Shown here: one piece after another, positions 24,597-35,652 of the stretch
Position numbering within the stretch: the first letter of the stretch is position 1
Layout of the letters: each line of letters opens with the position of its first letter
Origin: Elusimicrobiota bacterium
Lineage (GTDB): Bacteria > Elusimicrobiota > Elusimicrobia > UBA1565 > UBA9628
Length of the DNA stretch: 64,000 bases
Direction: 5' to 3'
Assembly (NCBI GenBank): GCA_016191335.1
Contig: JACPOW010000029.1
Location: forward strand, 1,354 to 65,353
Made by a program: the position numbers and the translations under genes
The notes under the pieces: model-generated
Databases searched by the model: none
What the model was told of the DNA's origin: nothing
Seen by the model: only the letters and a program-made list of their open reading frames with translations

Positions 24597-26537
24597 GTGA
24601 CGCTCCCTGTCTCCAAGGCGTTCTCCGCGCTCGCGCTCGCAGCCGCTCTCGCGATCCTCGGCCCGTGTCCGGCGCTGGCCGTCTCGCCGCCGAGCGTCAA
24701 CCCCTGCGACGGGCCCGGGGCCGCCATCAATCCCAATTGCGGGAACTCGGGCGCGCTCGCGCCGACGACGCCTCCGCAGAATCCCCCGCAGGATAGCGGG
24801 ACCGGCGCGGGCGGGAGCGTCGGCGGGGGTCTGGCCGGAGGTTCGGGAAGAGGCCCGACGGGAGGCTCCACCGGAGGCTCGACGGGCGGGATCGGCGGGA
24901 GCTTGTCCAATCTTCTGGGGAAAACCTTGGCCAATGCCGCTCCGGCCGGCGTCCAGCTGCAGATGGGCGACCTGTCCGCAGCGTGCGAGACCGCACGCGC
25001 CGCGCTCGCCCTTGACCCCAAGGACGCGAAGGCGCTCAAGATCGAGGTCCTCGCCTGCCGCTCCGGCCTGACGAGCGGGCCGAAGGCCGTCGACGGCGGC
25101 GACCTCAAGCCCGGGACCGGCGGCAAGGAAGTGGCCCTCGACGCGGGCTCGCGTTCGAAGCTGCTGCGCGGCGAGACGGGCGGGGGGGCCATGACCGGCC
25201 CCGGCGCCCTGCAGGCCTGGCTGCTGCGCATCGAGGAGACGAAGGGGCTCGGCGAGTACGCCCAGGTGATCATGCTGTCCGACGAGGCTCTGCAGGAGTT
25301 CCCCGGGAACACCCACCTCCTCGACGCGAAGGCCACGGCGCAGAACAAGCTCAAGGATTTCAAAGGGGCGCTCGCGGCGGCCGACGAGGCGCTGAGCCTC
25401 GACTCGAAGGACGCCGTCGCCTGGGCGAACCGGGCCTTCGCGCTGGGCGGGCTCGGCGACAAGAAGGGGATGATCGACGCCCTGCGCGAGGCGGCCGCGC
25501 TCGACCCGCGCTTCGAGGCGGCCCTCAAGGCCGCCCTGGCCGACGAGGCGGCGGGCCTGTTTGGCGGCGGGAACAAGGCGGGGTTCAAGCTGCCCGTCCT
25601 GCCGAAGGCGGTCTGGATCGGCGTACCGGCGGCCGCGGGTTTCCTGGCGATGCTGCTCGTCGTGCTCCTGGCCCGGCGGCGGGACGCCGTTCCCGCGACC
25701 GTGCCCGCGGGCCCGGTCGCCCCGCGCGCGATCGGGGCCGGCGACGTCCTGGGTGGGAATTTCCGCGTGGACGGCGAGCTCGGTCGCGGCGGCATGGGCA
25801 TCGTCTACGACGCGCACGACGAGCAGCTCGACCGCCGCGTGGCCATCAAGCAGCTCCAGCGCGACGCGGGCACCACGCCCGCCGACATCGAGCGCTTCCT
25901 CAAGGAGGCTCGGCTCGTCGCCAAGCTCAAGCACCCCAACCTCGCCGAGATCTACACCGTCCTCGTGGAGAGGGGCGAGCCCCTGCTCGTCTTCGAGTAC
26001 GTCGACGGGCGCACGCTCGACAAGGTCATCGCGACCAACCGCGGCCTGCCGCTGGCGCAGACGGAGAAGATACTCGACGGCATCACCGGCGCGCTCGACT
26101 ACGCCCACCGCCTGAAGATCATCCACCGCGACCTCAAGCCGTCGAACGTGATGGTCTCGCGCGACGGGGCGACGGTCAAGGTCATGGACTTCGGCATCGC
26201 GCATCAGGCGACCACGACGGGCCTGACCCGGACCGAGGCCTCCGGCACGCCGCCGTACATGTCGCCCGAGCAGGGCATGGGCTCCGTCTCGAAGGCCTCC
26301 GACCTGTACGCGCTGGGCGTGATGACCTACGAGATGGTCGCCGGGGTCCGCCCTTTCGAGGGGCCCGACTTCCTCGAACCGAAGCTGCGCAAGGAGTTCG
26401 CGCCCGTCACCCAGCGCGGCCGGGCGCTGCCCGCCGGGCTCGACGCGTTCTTCGCCTCGGCCCTCGACCCCGACCCCACGAAGCGCCCGGCCACGGGCGC
26501 GGCGTTCCTCCTCGCCTTCCGCCAGTCCCTCGCCTGA
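24597..26537 (+). CDS. Membrane Ser/Thr (Hanks) protein kinase with extracytoplasmic TPR region
   Basis: LGRGGMGIVY, VAIK, HRDLKPSN, DFG, GTPPYMSPEQ, SDLYALG; TM before the kinase domain. Confidence 0.92.
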   Translation: MTLPVSKAFSALALAAALAILGPCPALAVSPPSVNPCDGPGAAINPNCGNSGALAPTTPPQNPPQDSGTGAGGSVGGGLAGGSGRGPTGGSTGGSTGGIGGSLSNLLGKTLANAAPAGVQLQMGDLSAACETARAALALDPKDAKALKIEVLACRSGLTSGPKAVDGGDLKPGTGGKEVALDAGSRSKLLRGETGGGAMTGPGALQAWLLRIEETKGLGEYAQVIMLSDEALQEFPGNTHLLDAKATAQNKLKDFKGALAAADEALSLDSKDAVAWANRAFALGGLGDKKGMIDALREAAALDPRFEAALKAALADEAAGLFGGGNKAGFKLPVLPKAVWIGVPAAAGFLAMLLVVLLARRRDAVPATVPAGPVAPRAIGAGDVLGGNFRVDGELGRGGMGIVYDAHDEQLDRRVAIKQLQRDAGTTPADIERFLKEARLVAKLKHPNLAEIYTVLVERGEPLLVFEYVDGRTLDKVIATNRGLPLAQTEKILDGITGALDYAHRLKIIHRDLKPSNVMVSRDGATVKVMDFGIAHQATTTGLTRTEASGTPPYMSPEQGMGSVSKASDLYALGVMTYEMVAGVRPFEGPDFLEPKLRKEFAPVTQRGRALPAGLDAFFASALDPDPTKRPATGAAFLLAFRQSLA

Positions 26538-30074: not shown

Positions 30075-30278
30075 ATGAACATCATGATGGTCGCGGCGGT
30101 CGCCGGTCATGGGAACAATCCAGGGCTGCCGTGCCAGGAGAGCGGGCTGTTCTGCCTGTTCCTGGCGATCGCGGGTCTGATGCTGCTCACCGCCGCCGCT
30201 TGGATGGTCCGCCGCGAAGGCTCGCGCAACGACGCGGTGCGCTACGCGCGCTCACACCGCCGCACGAACGGCCTTTAG
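30075..30278 (+). CDS. Possible small membrane protein
   Basis: 67-aa ORF with one TM; overlaps the umuC 3' end by 27 nt. Confidence 0.4.
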   Translation: MNIMMVAAVAGHGNNPGLPCQESGLFCLFLAIAGLMLLTAAAWMVRREGSRNDAVRYARSHRRTNGL

Positions 30279-31499
30279 GTCCTCCCACCGGGTCGTCCAG
30301 CAGGGGGACCGGCTCTCGCAGCGCGAGCCCCAGGCCGTCGAGGACTTCTCCCCGCCGTAGCGCAGGGCGCCCGCGCCGAGCGCGGCGTTGAGCCGGTCGA
30401 CGGTCTTCGAGAGGCGCGCCGACTTCTCCACGGACCCGTCGTCGAAGAACTCGCTTTGCGCGGTGTCCGCGGCCTCCAGGCCGCCCAGGACGATGCCCGC
30501 CTTCTTGTAGGCGCGCCCCTCGACGAAGAGCTTGTCGGCCAGCGCCTTGGCGGCGCGGATCAAGGTCGGGCTGTCGTTGGTGGGGGAGAGGCGCACGCTC
30601 TCGCCGTCCATGACCGGGCGGTCGTCCTCGCGCCAGCCGAAGTGGACGCCGAGCTCCCCGGCGCGCAGGCCGTGGCGGCGCGCGCGCTCCGCGGCGCGGG
30701 CGGCGAAGGTGCCGAGCGCGGACTGCAGGGCGTCGAGCGAGTAGACCGGCTTGCCGAACGAACGGGAGACGGTCACCGATTGGCGCGCGGCGGGCGCGTC
30801 AGCCAAGGTCAGGCAGGAGATGCCGCGCAGCTCGTGGGCGAGCTTGAGGCCGCCGATGCCGAGCGCGCTCTGGATCTGGGCGTCGCGCATCCGGGTGAAG
30901 TCCCCCGCGGTGCGCACGCCGTAGGGGGCGAGGCGCAGGGCGGAGCGCTTGGCGATGCCCCAGATGTGAGTGACGGGCGTCTCATCCAGGAGCTGTTCTC
31001 TCAAGACCGGATCGAGCAAGGACAGGACGCCGCCGAGCTTCTTGGCCTTGTCGGAGCCGAGCTTGGCCAGGGCCTTCGTCGGGGCCAGGCCGACGGCCAC
31101 GGGCAGGCCGGTCCAGCGGCGCACCTCGGCGCGCAGCGCGCGGGCGCGCTCCTCGAGGAGCGTGTCGTCGGGGAAGGTGAGGAAGGACTCGTCGACGGAG
31201 TAGTTCTCCACGACGGGCGCGTGGCGGGAGAGGACGGCGGAGACGCGCCGCGACATGTCCACGTACAGCTCATGGTTGGCCGACAGCGAGACGATCCCGT
31301 GCTCGGCGACGAGGGCGCGGATCTCGAAGAACGGCGCCGCCATGCCGACGCCGAGCGCCTTGGCCTCCTCCGAGCGGGAGATCACGCAGCCGTCGTTGTT
31401 GGAGAGCACGACGACGGGGCGCCCCTCGAGCTCGGGGCGGAAGGCGCGCTCGCAGGAGACGAAGAAGTTGTTGCAGTCGACGAGGGCGAAGGCGGGCAT
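30252..31499 (-). CDS. umuC: Y-family DNA polymerase V catalytic subunit
   Basis: FALVDCNNFFVSCER, VVVLSNNDGCVISRS, YSVDESF, PTKALAK, SRSFG, YKKAGI, SPCWTTRW. Confidence 0.93.
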   Translation of the reverse strand: MPAFALVDCNNFFVSCERAFRPELEGRPVVVLSNNDGCVISRSEEAKALGVGMAAPFFEIRALVAEHGIVSLSANHELYVDMSRRVSAVLSRHAPVVENYSVDESFLTFPDDTLLEERARALRAEVRRWTGLPVAVGLAPTKALAKLGSDKAKKLGGVLSLLDPVLREQLLDETPVTHIWGIAKRSALRLAPYGVRTAGDFTRMRDAQIQSALGIGGLKLAHELRGISCLTLADAPAARQSVTVSRSFGKPVYSLDALQSALGTFAARAAERARRHGLRAGELGVHFGWREDDRPVMDGESVRLSPTNDSPTLIRAAKALADKLFVEGRAYKKAGIVLGGLEAADTAQSEFFDDGSVEKSARLSKTVDRLNAALGAGALRYGGEKSSTAWGSRCESRSPCWTTRWEDLKAVRAAV

Positions 31500-31501
31500 C
31501 G

Positions 31502-31792
31502 CTACGGCGCGCGCACGACGAAGGTCACCACGCCCCAGATCTCGAGGCCGTCGTCCTCGCGCCAGCCGGGCGGCAGGCGCCGGGTCAGCAGCTCGCCGCG
31601 GACCACGGCCACGACCACGCGCCCGGGGGAGGGCGGCTCGGCGCGGTCGACGATCAGCAGGTCGCCGTCCTTGACGTCCGCGTCGGGGGCCGAGCCCGCG
31701 GCGCGCAGGAAGAAGGTGGCCGCCGGCCGCTTGATGAGGCGGTCGTCGAGCTTGAGGCCGACGTCGTCGTAGTCCTCGCTGGCGACGAACAT
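31502..31792 (-). CDS. umuD: UmuD-like subunit (96 aa), lacking the N-terminal arm and catalytic dyad
   Basis: EDY...LDDRLIKRPAATFFLRA, DGDLLIVDRA, VVVAVVRGE, IWGVVTFVV; directly upstream of umuC. Confidence 0.8.
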   Translation of the reverse strand: MFVASEDYDDVGLKLDDRLIKRPAATFFLRAAGSAPDADVKDGDLLIVDRAEPPSPGRVVVAVVRGELLTRRLPPGWREDDGLEIWGVVTFVVRAP

Positions 31793-31799
31793 GGGACTT

Positions 31800-31828
31800 A
31801 GTATAGTCGAACACTCGTTCGAACGCAA
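31800..31828 (-). promoter_or_regulatory. umuDC promoter with LexA-type SOS box in the spacer
   Basis: Minus strand TTGCGT-17-TATACT; palindrome TCGAAC-ACTC-GTTCGA at 31807-31822. Confidence 0.85.
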
Positions 31829-31846
31829 GGGGCGGGGGAAAAGAAG

Positions 31847-31872
31847 AAGGGCCTCGCTCGCGCGAGGCCCTT
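31847..31872 (-). terminator. Intrinsic terminator
   Basis: AAGGGCCTCGC-4-GCGAGGCCCTT, followed on the minus strand by CTTCTTTT. Confidence 0.75.
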
Positions 31873-31892
31873 TCGTCTTGAACGGCTAAGGC

Positions 31893-32444
31893 TTAATAGG
31901 CGCCGATCTCGCTCTCGAGGTCCTGCTCGGGCAGGCTCTGGTGGCGGTCGGAGCGCACGGGGGACTTCTCGGCGGGCTGGCGGCGGCCGTCGAAGAGGTT
32001 GTCCAGGGCGTCGCGCTCGGCGGCCTTGTCCTTGGGCGCGTCGCTCTTGGCCGGCGCGGCGAGCTGGGCGCGGAGGGCGGGGTAGGGGAGGACGCCTTCG
32101 TGCGCGTTGAGCTTCCACATGTGCTCGGGGATCGCGGAGATGGGCAGCGAGGGCATCGTGGGGGTGATGACGGGGATGATCGGGTTCGGGATCTGGGCCG
32201 GGACCGGGGTCTGCGCCGGGGTCGGGGCGGGGGCGGCCGCGAGCACGATGGACGGGGCCAGCAGGGGCGCCGGGAGGCTGATGCGCGGGCTGATCACGAT
32301 GTTGGGGACCGGGCCGGGGAGGTTGACGCCGGTGCCGATGTAGATGTTGCCGCGGCCGCCGGGGAGGATCGAGGTCACCTGGGCCGAGGCCGAGGTCGCG
32401 AGGATCAGGGAGAGAGTGGCGAAGAAAGTCGTCTTGGTGTTCAT
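31893..32444 (-). CDS. Secreted Pro-rich hypothetical protein
   Basis: Signal peptide MNTKTTFF...ASA; Pro/Ala linker; LDNLFDG near the C-terminus. Confidence 0.7.
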   Translation of the reverse strand: MNTKTTFFATLSLILATSASAQVTSILPGGRGNIYIGTGVNLPGPVPNIVISPRISLPAPLLAPSIVLAAAPAPTPAQTPVPAQIPNPIIPVITPTMPSLPISAIPEHMWKLNAHEGVLPYPALRAQLAAPAKSDAPKDKAAERDALDNLFDGRRQPAEKSPVRSDRHQSLPEQDLESEIGAY

Positions 32445-33048: not shown

Positions 33049-33588
33049 ATGCGCTTGTTTATCGCCGTCGCCGCGGATGAGGAGGTCAAGTCGGCCGCCG
33101 CCGCGGCCGTCGCGCGCCTGCGGCGGGCCGGCGGGAGCTTCCGCTGGGTGGACCCGCGCGACATGCACACGACCTTGCGCTGGTTCGGCGCGGTGGACGA
33201 AAGCCGTCTGCCCGAGATCCAGGAGCTGATGACGCGCGCCGCCGCGGCGACCGCGCCGTTCGAGGTCGTGTACGGCGCCGTGGACGCGTTCGACTCGCAC
33301 GAGGAGGCGCGCGTGGTCTGGATCGGCCTGACCGAGGGCAAGGAGCCGATGGAGAGGCTCGCGGGCCTGCTGCTGCGCGACGAGCCGCGGCCCTACTCGC
33401 CGCACCTCACCTTGGGCCGCAACCGGGACGACGCCGCCCCTCCCGGGTTCGTCGCCGCCCTCAAGGCGGAGCCCGTCCTGGGGATGCGCCGCCCGGTGAC
33501 GAAGATCAGCCTGTACGCGAGCAAGCCCGCGCCCTTCGGCCACGCCTACGAGATCCTCTTCGAGGCCGACCTGACCGGCGCCGCTTAG
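33049..33588 (+). CDS. thpR: RNA 2',3'-cyclic phosphodiesterase (2H family)
   Basis: MRLFIAV; two HxT motifs (HTTL, PHLTLGR). Confidence 0.9.
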   Translation: MRLFIAVAADEEVKSAAAAAVARLRRAGGSFRWVDPRDMHTTLRWFGAVDESRLPEIQELMTRAAAATAPFEVVYGAVDAFDSHEEARVVWIGLTEGKEPMERLAGLLLRDEPRPYSPHLTLGRNRDDAAPPGFVAALKAEPVLGMRRPVTKISLYASKPAPFGHAYEILFEADLTGAA

Positions 33589-34784
33589 TTCGGCGGCGTG
33601 TCCGTCGCCGGCTCGACCTCGGGGATGGTCGGGATGAGGCTCTCCAGGTTGGAGTTCCCCGGAGCCGCGGCCGTCGAGGACCGCATCGGCGTGCCCGGTC
33701 CGGATTTCGGCGCCGAGCCGCTCGAGCCCGCGGGCGAGCCCGACGAGCCGCCGCCGCCCCCGCCGCCCGCGGCCTGCGTGGTGGTCCCGCGCAGGAGCTC
33801 GGGGTGGTTGATGACCTCCTTCCAGCTGCACACCGGCGAGATGTTCGAGCAGGCCCCGACCCAGCCGTTGCCGTAGGCCCAGGCGAGGAAGGGGTTGACG
33901 GGCTGGACCTCGACGCTGCCGTTGCCCTTGTAGGTCCAGCGCGGGCCGATCTTGCCTTCGCGGTTCCTGCCCAGGACCTCGCCTTCGCAGGTCACGCGCA
34001 TCGGGTCGCCCTCGGGGCGCAGCGGGCAGCAGCCGCGGCCGGAGAAGCCGATCGCGGAGCAGTAGCTCCCGGAGCAGACGATCGGCGTGGAGTCCACGAC
34101 GCGGCGGTTCTTGTTTCCGCCCATCAGGTTGAGATTGATGTGATGCAGCCCCGGCGGCTTGGGCCAGCAGCCGGTGGTGCCGGGGGGCGGCGTGAGGGCC
34201 GGGTCCGCGCCGGGGGCGGCGGAGGTCGCGGGCGAGGGCTGCCCCGTGTAGCCGGCGGGCGGGACGTAGGGCTTCTCGAAGCCCTTGGGCGCGGGGTGGC
34301 CGCCGTCGTAGGCGTTCCACTGCCAGCGGGGCTTGCCGTCGGCGCCGTCGACGACCGTGACGTAGCCGCCGTTGCCGGCGAGGTCGGTGCTGCCGTCCTG
34401 GCCGCGACGGGCGTTGTCCTGGCCCAGGGCCTGCTCGATGAGCTTCTGGTTCTCGGGCGTGGGCGGCAGGGACTGGGCCAGGCGCGCGAACTCGCTCTTG
34501 GGCGAGCCGGGCAAGGTGCTTCCGTCGGGGGCGAACCCGGAGAGGAGGCCCGCGAAGGCGTCCTTCTCGTAGCCGTCGCCCTTCTGGATGAGCGCGTCGG
34601 CCATCTTGGCGCGGGCCGCCGCGGCGCTCGCCGCCGCGTTCGAGCCCTTGGCGTCCGCGGCGATCTTGTCGGCGTCGAGCGCCGGGCCGCAGCCGCCCAT
34701 GCCGCCCCCGATGCCCCCGCCGCAGGCCATCGCGGCGAACGCGAAGGCCAGGAGGACGGCGCGGCGCGGGTCGGGGACGGTCAT
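33585..34784 (-). CDS. Putative lipoprotein with Cys-rich domain (paralog of the adjacent gene)
   Basis: Lipobox-like AMAC; domain LHHINLNLMGGN..VDSTPIVCS..CCP.RPEG.PMRV.CE..NPFLA.AYG..ACSN..VC. Confidence 0.72.
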   Translation of the reverse strand: MTVPDPRRAVLLAFAFAAMACGGGIGGGMGGCGPALDADKIAADAKGSNAAASAAAARAKMADALIQKGDGYEKDAFAGLLSGFAPDGSTLPGSPKSEFARLAQSLPPTPENQKLIEQALGQDNARRGQDGSTDLAGNGGYVTVVDGADGKPRWQWNAYDGGHPAPKGFEKPYVPPAGYTGQPSPATSAAPGADPALTPPPGTTGCWPKPPGLHHINLNLMGGNKNRRVVDSTPIVCSGSYCSAIGFSGRGCCPLRPEGDPMRVTCEGEVLGRNREGKIGPRWTYKGNGSVEVQPVNPFLAWAYGNGWVGACSNISPVCSWKEVINHPELLRGTTTQAAGGGGGGGSSGSPAGSSGSAPKSGPGTPMRSSTAAAPGNSNLESLIPTIPEVEPATDTPPN

Positions 34785-34787
34785 GGA

Positions 34788-35582
34788 CTATTTTTTGCCG
34801 TAGTTGGGGACCTGGTAGGCCGTCTCTCCGCACACCTTGACGAGGTTCGAGCACGCCCGGACGATGCCCTTGCCGTAGGCGAAGGCCAGGAAGGGATTGT
34901 CCGGGTGGCGTTCCACCCCGCCGTCGCCGCCGATGTAGGACCAGTGCGGCCCGGCGACGCCGTCGGAGCGGTCCGTACCGAGCAGGGCCAGCTCGCAGGC
35001 CACGCGCATCGGATGCCCTTCCGGCTTGACCGGGCAGCAGCGGCGGTTGTCGTCTCCCATCGTTTCCTGGCAGTAGCGCTCGTGCTTTGTCCCCTTATCG
35101 GTGGAGCAGACGATGGGCGTGGAATCGACCTTGAACCGGTTCCCGTTGCCGCCCATCAGTTGGACGTTGATGTGGTGAAGGGGAGGAACGTCGCAGTCCA
35201 TGGACGGTTTGCCCCGAGGGGTGTCCGGCTCCTCGTAGGTGTTCTCACCCTCGTCCTGGCCCTGCGGCCGCTGTCGAGGCGCCGCTCCGCCCCCGCCGCC
35301 CCCGCCGCCCCCGCCCCCGCCGCCCCCGCCGCCTTCGTCATCGCGGCGCGCGGCCGACGGCCGCGAGGGCTGACGGTAGCCCCGGGTGGCCTTCCGGACC
35401 GGGACCGGCTCCGCCGACGGCGCGGCCGCCTCCGTCGTGGTGGTCGTCGTGTTCGGGGTCTGGTCGGAGTCCTGAGAGGCGGCTTCTTCGGCGTTCTCGG
35501 CTTCTTCGGCGGGGGTCCGGCTCGGGAAGGCCGCGAAAGCGGCCAGAACGGCGCACACGGCCAGGAAACGGGGAGTAGTCAT
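34788..35582 (-). CDS. Secreted protein with poly-Gly linker and the same Cys-rich domain
   Basis: Signal peptide; TTGACA-17-TACACT upstream; LHHINVQLMGGN..VDSTPIVCS..CCPVKPEGHPMRVACE..NPFLAFAYG..ACSN..VC. Confidence 0.72.
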   Translation of the reverse strand: MTTPRFLAVCAVLAAFAAFPSRTPAEEAENAEEAASQDSDQTPNTTTTTTEAAAPSAEPVPVRKATRGYRQPSRPSAARRDDEGGGGGGGGGGGGGGGGAAPRQRPQGQDEGENTYEEPDTPRGKPSMDCDVPPLHHINVQLMGGNGNRFKVDSTPIVCSTDKGTKHERYCQETMGDDNRRCCPVKPEGHPMRVACELALLGTDRSDGVAGPHWSYIGGDGGVERHPDNPFLAFAYGKGIVRACSNLVKVCGETAYQVPNYGKK

Positions 35583-35652
35583 GGAGGGTCCTCTCGTGAC
35601 CAAAGTGTAGACCCCGGAACGAGTCCTGTCAAGATTGGAACTACGCCGCGGG

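Follow-up and report, generated by a model that had tools for sequence, protein, structure and literature searches.

In the textbook account, error-prone synthesis is delayed by a post-translational checkpoint, the RecA*-mediated cleavage of UmuD, whose processed product, UmuD', begins at Gly25. We examined a 64,000-nucleotide stretch of DNA (hereafter the window) from an Elusimicrobiota bacterium (assembly GCA_016191335.1, 3.66 Mb, 93.9% complete), which carries a short umuD-like gene followed directly by umuC; window coordinates are used for this operon throughout. On the evidence of its sequence and of structure models, we consider it likely that this chromosomal umuD'C operon encodes the accessory subunit of DNA polymerase V (Pol V) directly in its activated form, under the control of LexA.

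The closest described counterpart is HumD of phage P1, named as the exception to the required cleavage of UmuD in the accessible part of PMC7092418. Our protein-level search of phage records returned 61 records, among them P1, P7, N15 and SSU5-like elements. P1 HumD (129 aa) starts with MGFPSPAADY, carries AADSHH and RIKRY, has an annotated LexA site upstream, and its record notes functional complementation of E. coli UmuD'; N15 gp26 starts with MGFPSPAQDY and has lost the Ser (GATHY). For E. coli itself, a Pol V model described in the available excerpts of PMC11791011 has UmuC's final four residues in a sheet with UmuD', the terminal carboxylate of UmuC near S36, T71 and K73 (UmuD' numbering), and the other subunit's N-terminal arm, which is conserved, reaching the UmuC active site; armless UmuD' is defective, according to the same excerpts. 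The Bacillus subtilis proteins YolD and YqjX have also been proposed to insert an N-terminal arm into their polymerase (PMC6511836 and PMC12926913, in the portions available). Full-text literature searches gave no description of a chromosomal UmuD' that is born short, that is, encoded without the arm that cleavage removes, and the available portions of these two Y-family surveys do not mention one; their supplements might list UmuD variants by genome.

Anatomy and conservation of the 96-residue protein

The umuD'-like coding sequence (31502-31792, minus strand, with its TAG stop at 31504-31502) encodes a born-short S24-fold protein of 96 aa (P0001; MFVASEDYDDVGLKLDDRLIKRPAATFFLRAAGSAPDADVKDGDLLIVDRAEPPSPGRVVVAVVRGELLTRRLPPGWREDDGLEIWGVVTFVVRAP). 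Profile positions 17-82 (of 116) of Pfam Peptidase_S24 (PF00717) matched residues 7-73 with 34.1 bits against a cut-off of 23.3; this similarity, like that to UmuD' given next, goes far beyond chance. Compared with Protein Data Bank (PDB) chains in HMMER, residues 6-73 aligned with positions 7-75 of 1umu_A (UmuD'; E = 1.5e-12) and residues 79-95 with positions 97-113, which puts the start of the protein no more than one residue from Gly25, and MAFFT placed M1 on the Gly of the UmuD cleavage site. The N-terminal MFVASEDY (31769-31792, minus strand) is thus the counterpart of GFPSPAADY in processed UmuD', and both the Cys/Ala-Gly self-cleavage site and the arm ahead of it are absent from the 96-aa protein. 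The longest extension that an upstream in-frame start allows, from a TTG at 31828, is 12 residues, which are a translation of the LexA box and the -10 element and leave no room for an arm.

The catalytic motifs of the S24 family are altered as well. GSAP (residues 33-36; 31685-31696, minus strand) is what remains of the GDSM nucleophile motif, one residue shorter, and which residue occupies the nucleophile column depends on the aligner: HMMER set Ser34 on Ser60 by opening a one-residue gap, and MAFFT set Ala35 there. In the HMMER alignment Arg71-Arg72 (31577-31582, minus strand) replace Lys97-Lys98, so that the general base is lost. Immediately beyond, PPGWR (residues 74-78; 31559-31573, minus strand) stands for 21 residues of UmuD', a net deletion of 16, and the segment between this motif and the WG motif measures 12 residues here versus 29 in canonical UmuDs. 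The Ser-Lys catalytic dyad of Peptidase S24 is accordingly lacking, with Arg at the Lys position and a Ser column that is ambiguous and unconserved.

A preliminary description, made by reading the letters, had proposed most of this anatomy: a frame opening with MFVASEDY 7 nt past the -10 element, a start matching the processed UmuD' N-terminus, no arm or cleavage site, a GDSM motif reading GSAP, a lost general-base motif and a shortened segment behind it. All of these stand as letters and alignments. The point to qualify is the loss of the nucleophile in this particular copy, which rests on whether Ser34 or Ala35 is placed in the column; in the alignments, loss of the Lys is the firm point and loss of the Ser here is alignment-dependent.

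The AlphaFold2 (AF2) model of the protein, built on a 144-row alignment, had a mean predicted local distance difference test (pLDDT) of 90 and a predicted template-modelling (pTM) score of 0.78, and residues 1-10 averaged a pLDDT of 59, consistent with a flexible arm. The best Foldseek matches in the PDB were UmuD' 1umu_B (E = 8.3e-7, template-modelling (TM) score 0.71), 1ay9, and UmuD on RecA, 8gmt_A (TM 0.72); UmuD-type chains spanned TM 0.69-0.72, and LexA C-domains ranked below them. The predicted fold is thus that of UmuD', minus a segment equal to about 21 residues after Lys97.

This form is shared by a whole group of relatives. A word-indexed protein search gave 696 proteins at E <= 1e-3 among 716 candidates, and 102 of the 120 best homologues (65-95% identical) were exactly 96 aa, the remaining 18 having 93-117 aa, nine of them 103 aa. 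Those among the 120 with a named source came from Elusimicrobia or Elusimicrobiota metagenome-assembled genomes (MAGs), under database labels such as 'S24 family peptidase', 'LexA family transcriptional regulator' and 'DNA polymerase V'. Most of the longer versions read M(F/L)(D/G/E)YT..MFVA, which is GTTCGA-TATACT translated. Across 103 members of 96 aa, M1, F2, V3, A4, E6, D7 and Y8 were each conserved in at least 95%, and position 71 was R in 97, Q in 3, and P, K and L in one each. The former nucleophile region was much looser, with S66/A16/G16/D3/H2 at position 34, A54/S45/E2/K1/V1 at position 35, and no Ser at either position in 14 of the 103.

We searched 401 sampled genomes of the phylum in six frames. 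Full-length matches occurred in 20, all belonging to one family: 17 of the 23 genomes of the bacterium's own genus (this assembly included) and one genome in each of three other genera. The other 21 matching genomes gave weak matches within LexA-sized frames, and a distant family of the phylum has a canonical UmuD (L028; SAG/FPSPADDY, GDSM, TVKR and a 29-residue loop). Over the 136 pairs of the 17 own-genus sequences (96 codons), the ratio of nonsynonymous to synonymous substitution rates (dN/dS, NG86) had a median of 0.24 and a range of 0.04-0.45, as for a gene under purifying selection, the three sequences from other genera being excluded because of indels. The orthologues were checked for an arm and a Ser/Lys dyad, whose retention would by the preliminary description's own condition have refuted it, and every one found was born short and lacked the Lys.

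Promoter layout and probable LexA control

Read along the minus strand from 31920 to 31480, the operon is preceded by a terminator-like hairpin that closes the upstream gene (31847-31872; 11-pair stem, 8 of the pairs being GC, then a T-rich tail), so umuD'C would need a promoter of its own. The candidate elements follow in close order on the same strand: a -35-like hexamer, TTGCGT (31823-31828), 17 nt from the -10; a perfectly palindromic SOS (LexA) box, TCGAACGAGTGTTCGA (31807-31822), occupying the spacer; and a -10 hexamer, TATACT (31800-31805), which begins one base after the box and ends exactly 7 nt before the ATG at 31792. The second gene, umuC (P0002, 415 aa; 30252-31499, minus strand), opens with an ATG at 31499 after a gap of 2 nt.

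The same design recurs in 20 of 20 orthologous loci, each with a TTG-type -35, a TCGAAC-N4-GTTCGA-type box in the spacer and a TATACT-like -10. The left half of the box is perfect in 11 loci and carries one or two changes in 9 (TCGGAC, TCGTAC, TAGTAC), and the right half reads GTCCGA in one; the -10 is TATCCT in three loci, TAAACT in one and TATACT otherwise. Behind the -10, ATGTTCGTCGC begins after 5 nt in 6 loci, 6 nt in 9, 7 nt in 2 and 8 nt in 3. No Shine-Dalgarno sequence fits into 5-8 nt, so the umuD'C mRNA is most simply read as leaderless, as the spacing between promoter and ATG implies. In 7 of the 20 loci the frame is closed by a stop 1-2 codons ahead of the ATG, which excludes a longer precursor in those seven. 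Coupling of the umuC start to the end of umuD' is also universal in this set (TAGcgATG, TGATG or TGAgcGTG).

In the 3.66-Mb assembly, CGAAC-N4-GTTCG occurs at 5 sites, versus 1 for the reversed control, and these are the umuD'C promoter, lexA, recA, a polB operon and a fifth site in an uninformative context. The lexA promoter (contig C43) repeats the layout in full, with TTGACA, the box, TATGCT, 7 nt and an ATG opening METNGLTPRQQ..., so that the lexA mRNA likewise looks leaderless. The box of recA (contig C63; TIGR02012, 529 bits) lies about 80 nt upstream of the ATG, and additional GTTCGA half-sites occur close by. TCGAAC-N4-GTTCGA is the SOS box of mycobacteria as well. The genome's LexA retains GDSM, TVKRL and Ala-Gly, which indicates that RecA*-stimulated self-cleavage exists in this organism, and the assembly yielded just two S24 genes. 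The proposal that the umuD'-like gene is controlled transcriptionally through LexA is thus supported by the shared palindrome before lexA and recA and by its place between -35 and -10 at every orthologous locus.

The box of the polB operon is a separate observation. On contig C10 (18500-24950 examined), a perfect SOS box at 24874-24887 with a TTGACA -35 and a leaderless-type start precedes a minus-strand operon for a 195-aa protein and then a 753-aa family-B DNA polymerase (PF00136, 101 bits). We see in this operon a possible PolB2-type mutasome under SOS control, such as the accessible part of PMC11791011 discusses. A reading of the 195-aa frame as ImuA-like was not supported, with no NCBIfam match and a best Pfam match at E = 0.18.

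The UmuC partner, the proposed mechanism and its alternatives

UmuC matched the Pfam domains IMS (117 bits), IMS_C (65 bits) and DUF4113 (52 bits), and its D8, D103 and E104 are invariant across 48 homologues, so it looks active. A PF00817 search of the 93.9%-complete assembly found this umuC as the sole Y-family polymerase, with no DinB or ImuB.

Modelling of the complex with UmuC, which the preliminary description had proposed as a check, was run with UmuC and two copies of the small protein. It scored 0.83 (0.82, 0.83 and 0.83 in individual runs), compared with 0.01 for the best of three controls; among solved complexes 58 of 80 attained 0.83, and among mismatched pairs 2 of 110, a calibration that holds only roughly for a three-chain job with custom alignments. 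The runs shared at least 67% of contacts, and partner pLDDT was at least 82. In the model, UmuC residues 401-415, 20-25, 81-89 and 125-131 contact residues 22-35, 38-46, 50-51, 61-70 and 86 of copy 1. The UmuC tail (401-415) is predicted to lie against strand 27-30 and residues 66-70, and UmuC 84-89 and 128-131, including the invariant W129-T130-G131, to touch R22-A25 and R50-A51. None of the 43 PDB matches to UmuC contained a UmuC chain, and recall of a solved complex is therefore not an obvious source of the score. The modelling supports the predicted binding of the small protein to UmuC, and the modelled arrangement resembles that of the published E. coli Pol V model in docking the UmuC C-terminus on a UmuD'-type subunit. 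Position 71 may be held as Arg, rather than any residue, because a role in binding the UmuC carboxylate persists after its function as a base has gone.

Taken together, these results suggest the following course of events. DNA damage would lead RecA* to trigger LexA cleavage and so free the promoter whose spacer is filled by the SOS box. A leaderless mRNA would then be translated from its 5' AUG, which would set the N-terminus at MFVA..., the position that E. coli UmuD reaches by self-cleavage. The product would keep the S24 beta-core with no arm, no general base and a shortened C-terminal half; having neither an arm to remove nor a general base, it presumably neither can nor needs to cleave itself. 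It would bind UmuC in the manner of UmuD', with the UmuC tail lying as a strand along the former active-site groove, a second surface (RPAATFF/DR) packing against the conserved WTG patch of UmuC, and Arg71 still binding the carboxylate, as Lys97 does in the published E. coli Pol V model. LexA repression, probably together with the loading of RecA onto UmuC, would then govern when mutagenic synthesis occurs, in place of UmuD cleavage. The initial inference that the cleavage checkpoint has been lost is supported, but other post-translational control may persist, since UmuC retains its C-terminal DUF4113 and a RecA-dependent activation step probably remains.

Several findings weigh against this reading. 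The best NCBIfam model for the small protein, NF007621 (UmuD, the Pol V autoproteolytic subunit; residues 5-73), scored 70.5 bits and so fell below its cut-off of 110, NF051876 (HumD) gave 48 bits against 120, and for the polymerase the best NCBIfam model, UmuC, gave 316.6 bits against 431. The 16-residue deletion takes out a portion of the fold that is found in every functionally tested UmuD'. Arg71 is absent from the named confident contacts of the complex, which is itself a prediction, and a Ser stands at residue 34 or 35 in 89 of the 103 members, so that a residual role for Ser is possible. Six own-genus genomes that are 87-100% complete gave no match, the other own-genus genomes besides this one matching in 16 of 22. 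A generic sigma-70 scan of 31300-32100 returned no promoter-like site because TTGCGT fits only 3 of 6 positions of the -35, and for that reason the promoter is argued from cross-genome conservation instead. On umuD'C, three metatranscriptome runs (about 5% of sampled words) left no more than fragments of about 30 nt; these matches are all contigs, which cover the neighbouring gene at 31880-32090 and are uninformative on expression or the 5' end. A relative's contig spanning the operon was present in one sequencing run of unknown kind.

The alternative that best survives the evidence, though we regard it as unlikely, is that the protein is a non-activating regulator, which binds UmuC, RecA filaments or the replisome and restrains synthesis as uncleaved E. 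coli UmuD does. Its uncleavable nature, with no dyad and no cleavage site, would suit that role, as would the C-terminal half shortened by 16 residues, the scores under the UmuD and HumD cut-offs and an arm (MFVA.EDY) unlike GFPSPAxDY. Yet the feature that defines the checkpoint form, the 24-residue arm, is precisely what is absent, the N-terminus coincides with that of UmuD' and is conserved to at least 95% at 7 of its first 8 positions, and the gene stays tightly coupled to an apparently active umuC. The complex model also seats the protein where the published Pol V model seats UmuD'.

We consider it very unlikely that the gene came by horizontal transfer from the phage HumD family (P1 HumD, N15 gp26) and landed beside umuC. 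HumD too starts at the cleavage site behind a LexA box, N15 gp26 has no Ser, and the NCBIfam HumD model does give a weak match; that match is far under its cut-off, however, and the UmuD model scores higher. HumD also retains its Lys and long loop, and only 32% of residues are identical, with 20 gap positions. The phage HumDs are orphans, whereas umuC is coupled in 20 of 20 loci here. The GC content (0.706-0.713) shows no contrast with the surrounding 0.66-0.77, the flanking genes are housekeeping genes (D-Tyr-tRNA deacylase and a LigT-like phosphoesterase), and the partner UmuCs fall into a single clade (SH-aLRT 100) that branches by genus and family.

Scarcely plausible, in our view, is a cleavage step that persists through a longer precursor, made from an upstream or non-canonical start, or through proteolysis by other residues. 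The frame is indeed open for 31 codons upstream in this genome, with the TTG 12 codons before the ATG, gene callers give 103-117-aa versions for some relatives, and the frequent Ser at 34 or 35 might serve such a purpose. These upstream 'residues' are nonetheless the LexA box and the -10, conserved as DNA, and are cut off by the stops just before the ATG in seven loci; no Ala/Cys-Gly site is present, and at the general-base position 97 of 103 members have Arg and one has Lys. A decaying, strain-specific umuD pseudogene, which a single sequence short of its arm, its dyad and 16 residues might resemble, is already refuted, as the preliminary description had anticipated in arguing against simple decay, by the 96-aa form of 102 of the 120 best matches and its presence in 20 genomes of four genera, by the median dN/dS of 0.24, by the conserved promoter and umuC coupling, and by a fold predicted at pLDDT 90.

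Related genes in other lineages and comparison with known systems

An exhaustive search of representative proteins returned 2562 matches at E <= 1e-3, 184 at E <= 1e-10 and none at E <= 1e-30, the two closest representatives (P0123, 94 aa; P0124, 96 aa) having the same architecture. From the best 150 of the 2562 we aligned the 109 of at most 160 aa, excluding 37 that were longer and 4 that looked chimeric or truncated. In MAFFT columns, 43 of the 109 had both Ser and Lys, 43 neither, 18 Ser only and 5 Lys only, and 43 of the 109 had a short segment after the motif; this set is biased towards the query, and its metagenomic N-termini are unreliable and possibly gene-calling artefacts.

A second set comprised at least 80 loci from species-representative genomes, collected with a 12-sequence query alignment and one search pattern, and is not a census. 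Among the matches listed, 6 loci were of the Elusimicrobiota type, and regular expressions covering an A/C-G site, GxSM and the Lys motif were passed by 53 of the 74 others; roughly nine of the 21 that failed do have the Lys by eye and were missed by these expressions, so that no exact fraction can be given. Two loci in this set have clearly born-short genes that lack the dyad and stand directly before umuC. L066, from a cyanobacterial MAG (2498-2794), starts MGFPISGD..., has DTM and TVTRS with a short loop, and is followed by umuC 19 nt downstream; L101, from an uncultured bacterium (2483-2761), starts MFNNYSEE..., has GDAL and TVMRL, and is followed by umuC 5 nt downstream. No paper describing genes of this type was found in the literature searches.

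In a UmuC tree of 75 rows, in which 26 Elusimicrobiota loci (some with duplicate sequences) were thinned to 12 rows, the Elusimicrobiota UmuCs formed one clade (SH-aLRT 100) whose inner branching parts the own genus from the three other genera. The UmuCs of L066 and L101 fell outside this clade on a weakly supported backbone, and independent origins of their short forms appear likely from these sequences.

Further departures from the canonical UmuD were seen at other loci. Six Chitinophagia/Bacteroidota loci (L067, L073, L084, L095, L103 and L104) carry UmuD-like genes of full-length size with ANATGFGAA(A/S)DD(Y/F) for AGFPSPADDY, (G/S)DAM for GDSM and LVRR(F/L) for TVKRL, and thus apparently uncleavable UmuDs; in three of the six, umuC is not adjacent, standing 424-728 nt off. 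A deltaproteobacterial MAG (L049) has a UmuD that is canonical (SAG/FPSPAEDY, GNSM and a 29-residue loop) except for TVRRI, a change of Lys to Arg alone.

More tentatively, and with some reservation, we raise the possibility that such small UmuD'-like proteins are an unrecognised and recurrent solution, reached in Elusimicrobiota and probably independently in a cyanobacterium and other uncultured lineages. An S24 protease would there have become a pure adaptor, with its groove as a dock for UmuC, an Arg holding the carboxylate, a leaderless mRNA setting the N-terminus, and timing left to LexA and RecA loading alone. Should this be true, the UmuD cleavage checkpoint would be dispensable in nature, and the 'catalytic' residues of UmuD' would have a second, structural role.

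The immediate surroundings of the operon in the window hold other genes of note. Directly upstream, 31893-32443 (minus strand) encodes a small Pro/Ala-rich secreted protein with a signal peptide, MNTKTTFFATLSLILATSASAQ, and is the only part of the examined stretch with RNA-library contig cover of more than about 150 nt. Beyond it, 33585-34784 and 34788-35603 (both minus strand) are adjacent paralogues for secreted proteins that have the motif HHIN.(N/Q)LMGGN.NR..VDSTPIVCS in common, together with Cys-rich C-terminal halves and Gly runs.

A chromosomal, protease-dead UmuD' present across a bacterial family, here paired with the sole Y-family polymerase detected in the genome, suggests that Pol V can operate in cells without the cleavage checkpoint. 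A natural minimal UmuD' of 96 aa helps to define which parts are needed to bind and activate UmuC, and the conserved change of Lys to Arg offers a direct test of the docking of the UmuC C-terminus in the former active site. There is also a warning for annotation, in that the labels 'S24 family peptidase', 'LexA family transcriptional regulator' and 'autoproteolytic subunit' are wrong on chemistry.

Compared with E. coli UmuD and UmuD' (1umu, 1ay9, 1i4v, 8gmt), the 96-aa protein has the same S24 beta-fold (TM about 0.7, 36% identity over the structural alignment), the same position as first gene of a LexA-boxed umuDC operon, and the same RPAATFF, GDLLIVDR and WGVV motifs. It differs in having no 24-residue arm and no Cys/Ala-Gly site, in the change of Lys97 to Arg, in a degenerate and shorter Ser motif, in the net loss of 16 residues past the Lys motif, and in an mRNA that looks leaderless. 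The B. subtilis YolD and YqjX, UmuD analogues of Gram-positive bacteria, are alike in being small, non-proteolytic accessory subunits beside a UmuC-like polymerase, but they belong to PF08863, which is evolutionarily distinct from UmuD (PMC6511836 and PMC12926913, as far as the available portions extend), whereas the Elusimicrobiota protein is a true S24/UmuD homologue.

HumD comes nearest, since it too is encoded already truncated at the UmuD cleavage site and behind a LexA box. HumD is, however, an orphan of phages and phage-plasmids that uses the host UmuC, whereas the gene described here is chromosomal and coupled to a umuC of its own. In HumD the Met precedes the Gly, the Lys is kept (RIKRY) and the segment after it is long; in the Elusimicrobiota protein Met1 occupies the Gly position and is followed by Phe, Arg replaces the Lys, and 16 residues are deleted. 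By sequence comparison, the 96-aa protein would be UmuD'/HumD-like in mode and lies outside both curated families. The concept of a ready-made UmuD' is thus known from HumD, and what appears new is its chromosomal, umuC-coupled, apparently leaderless, Lys-less and shortened form in one family of Elusimicrobiota.

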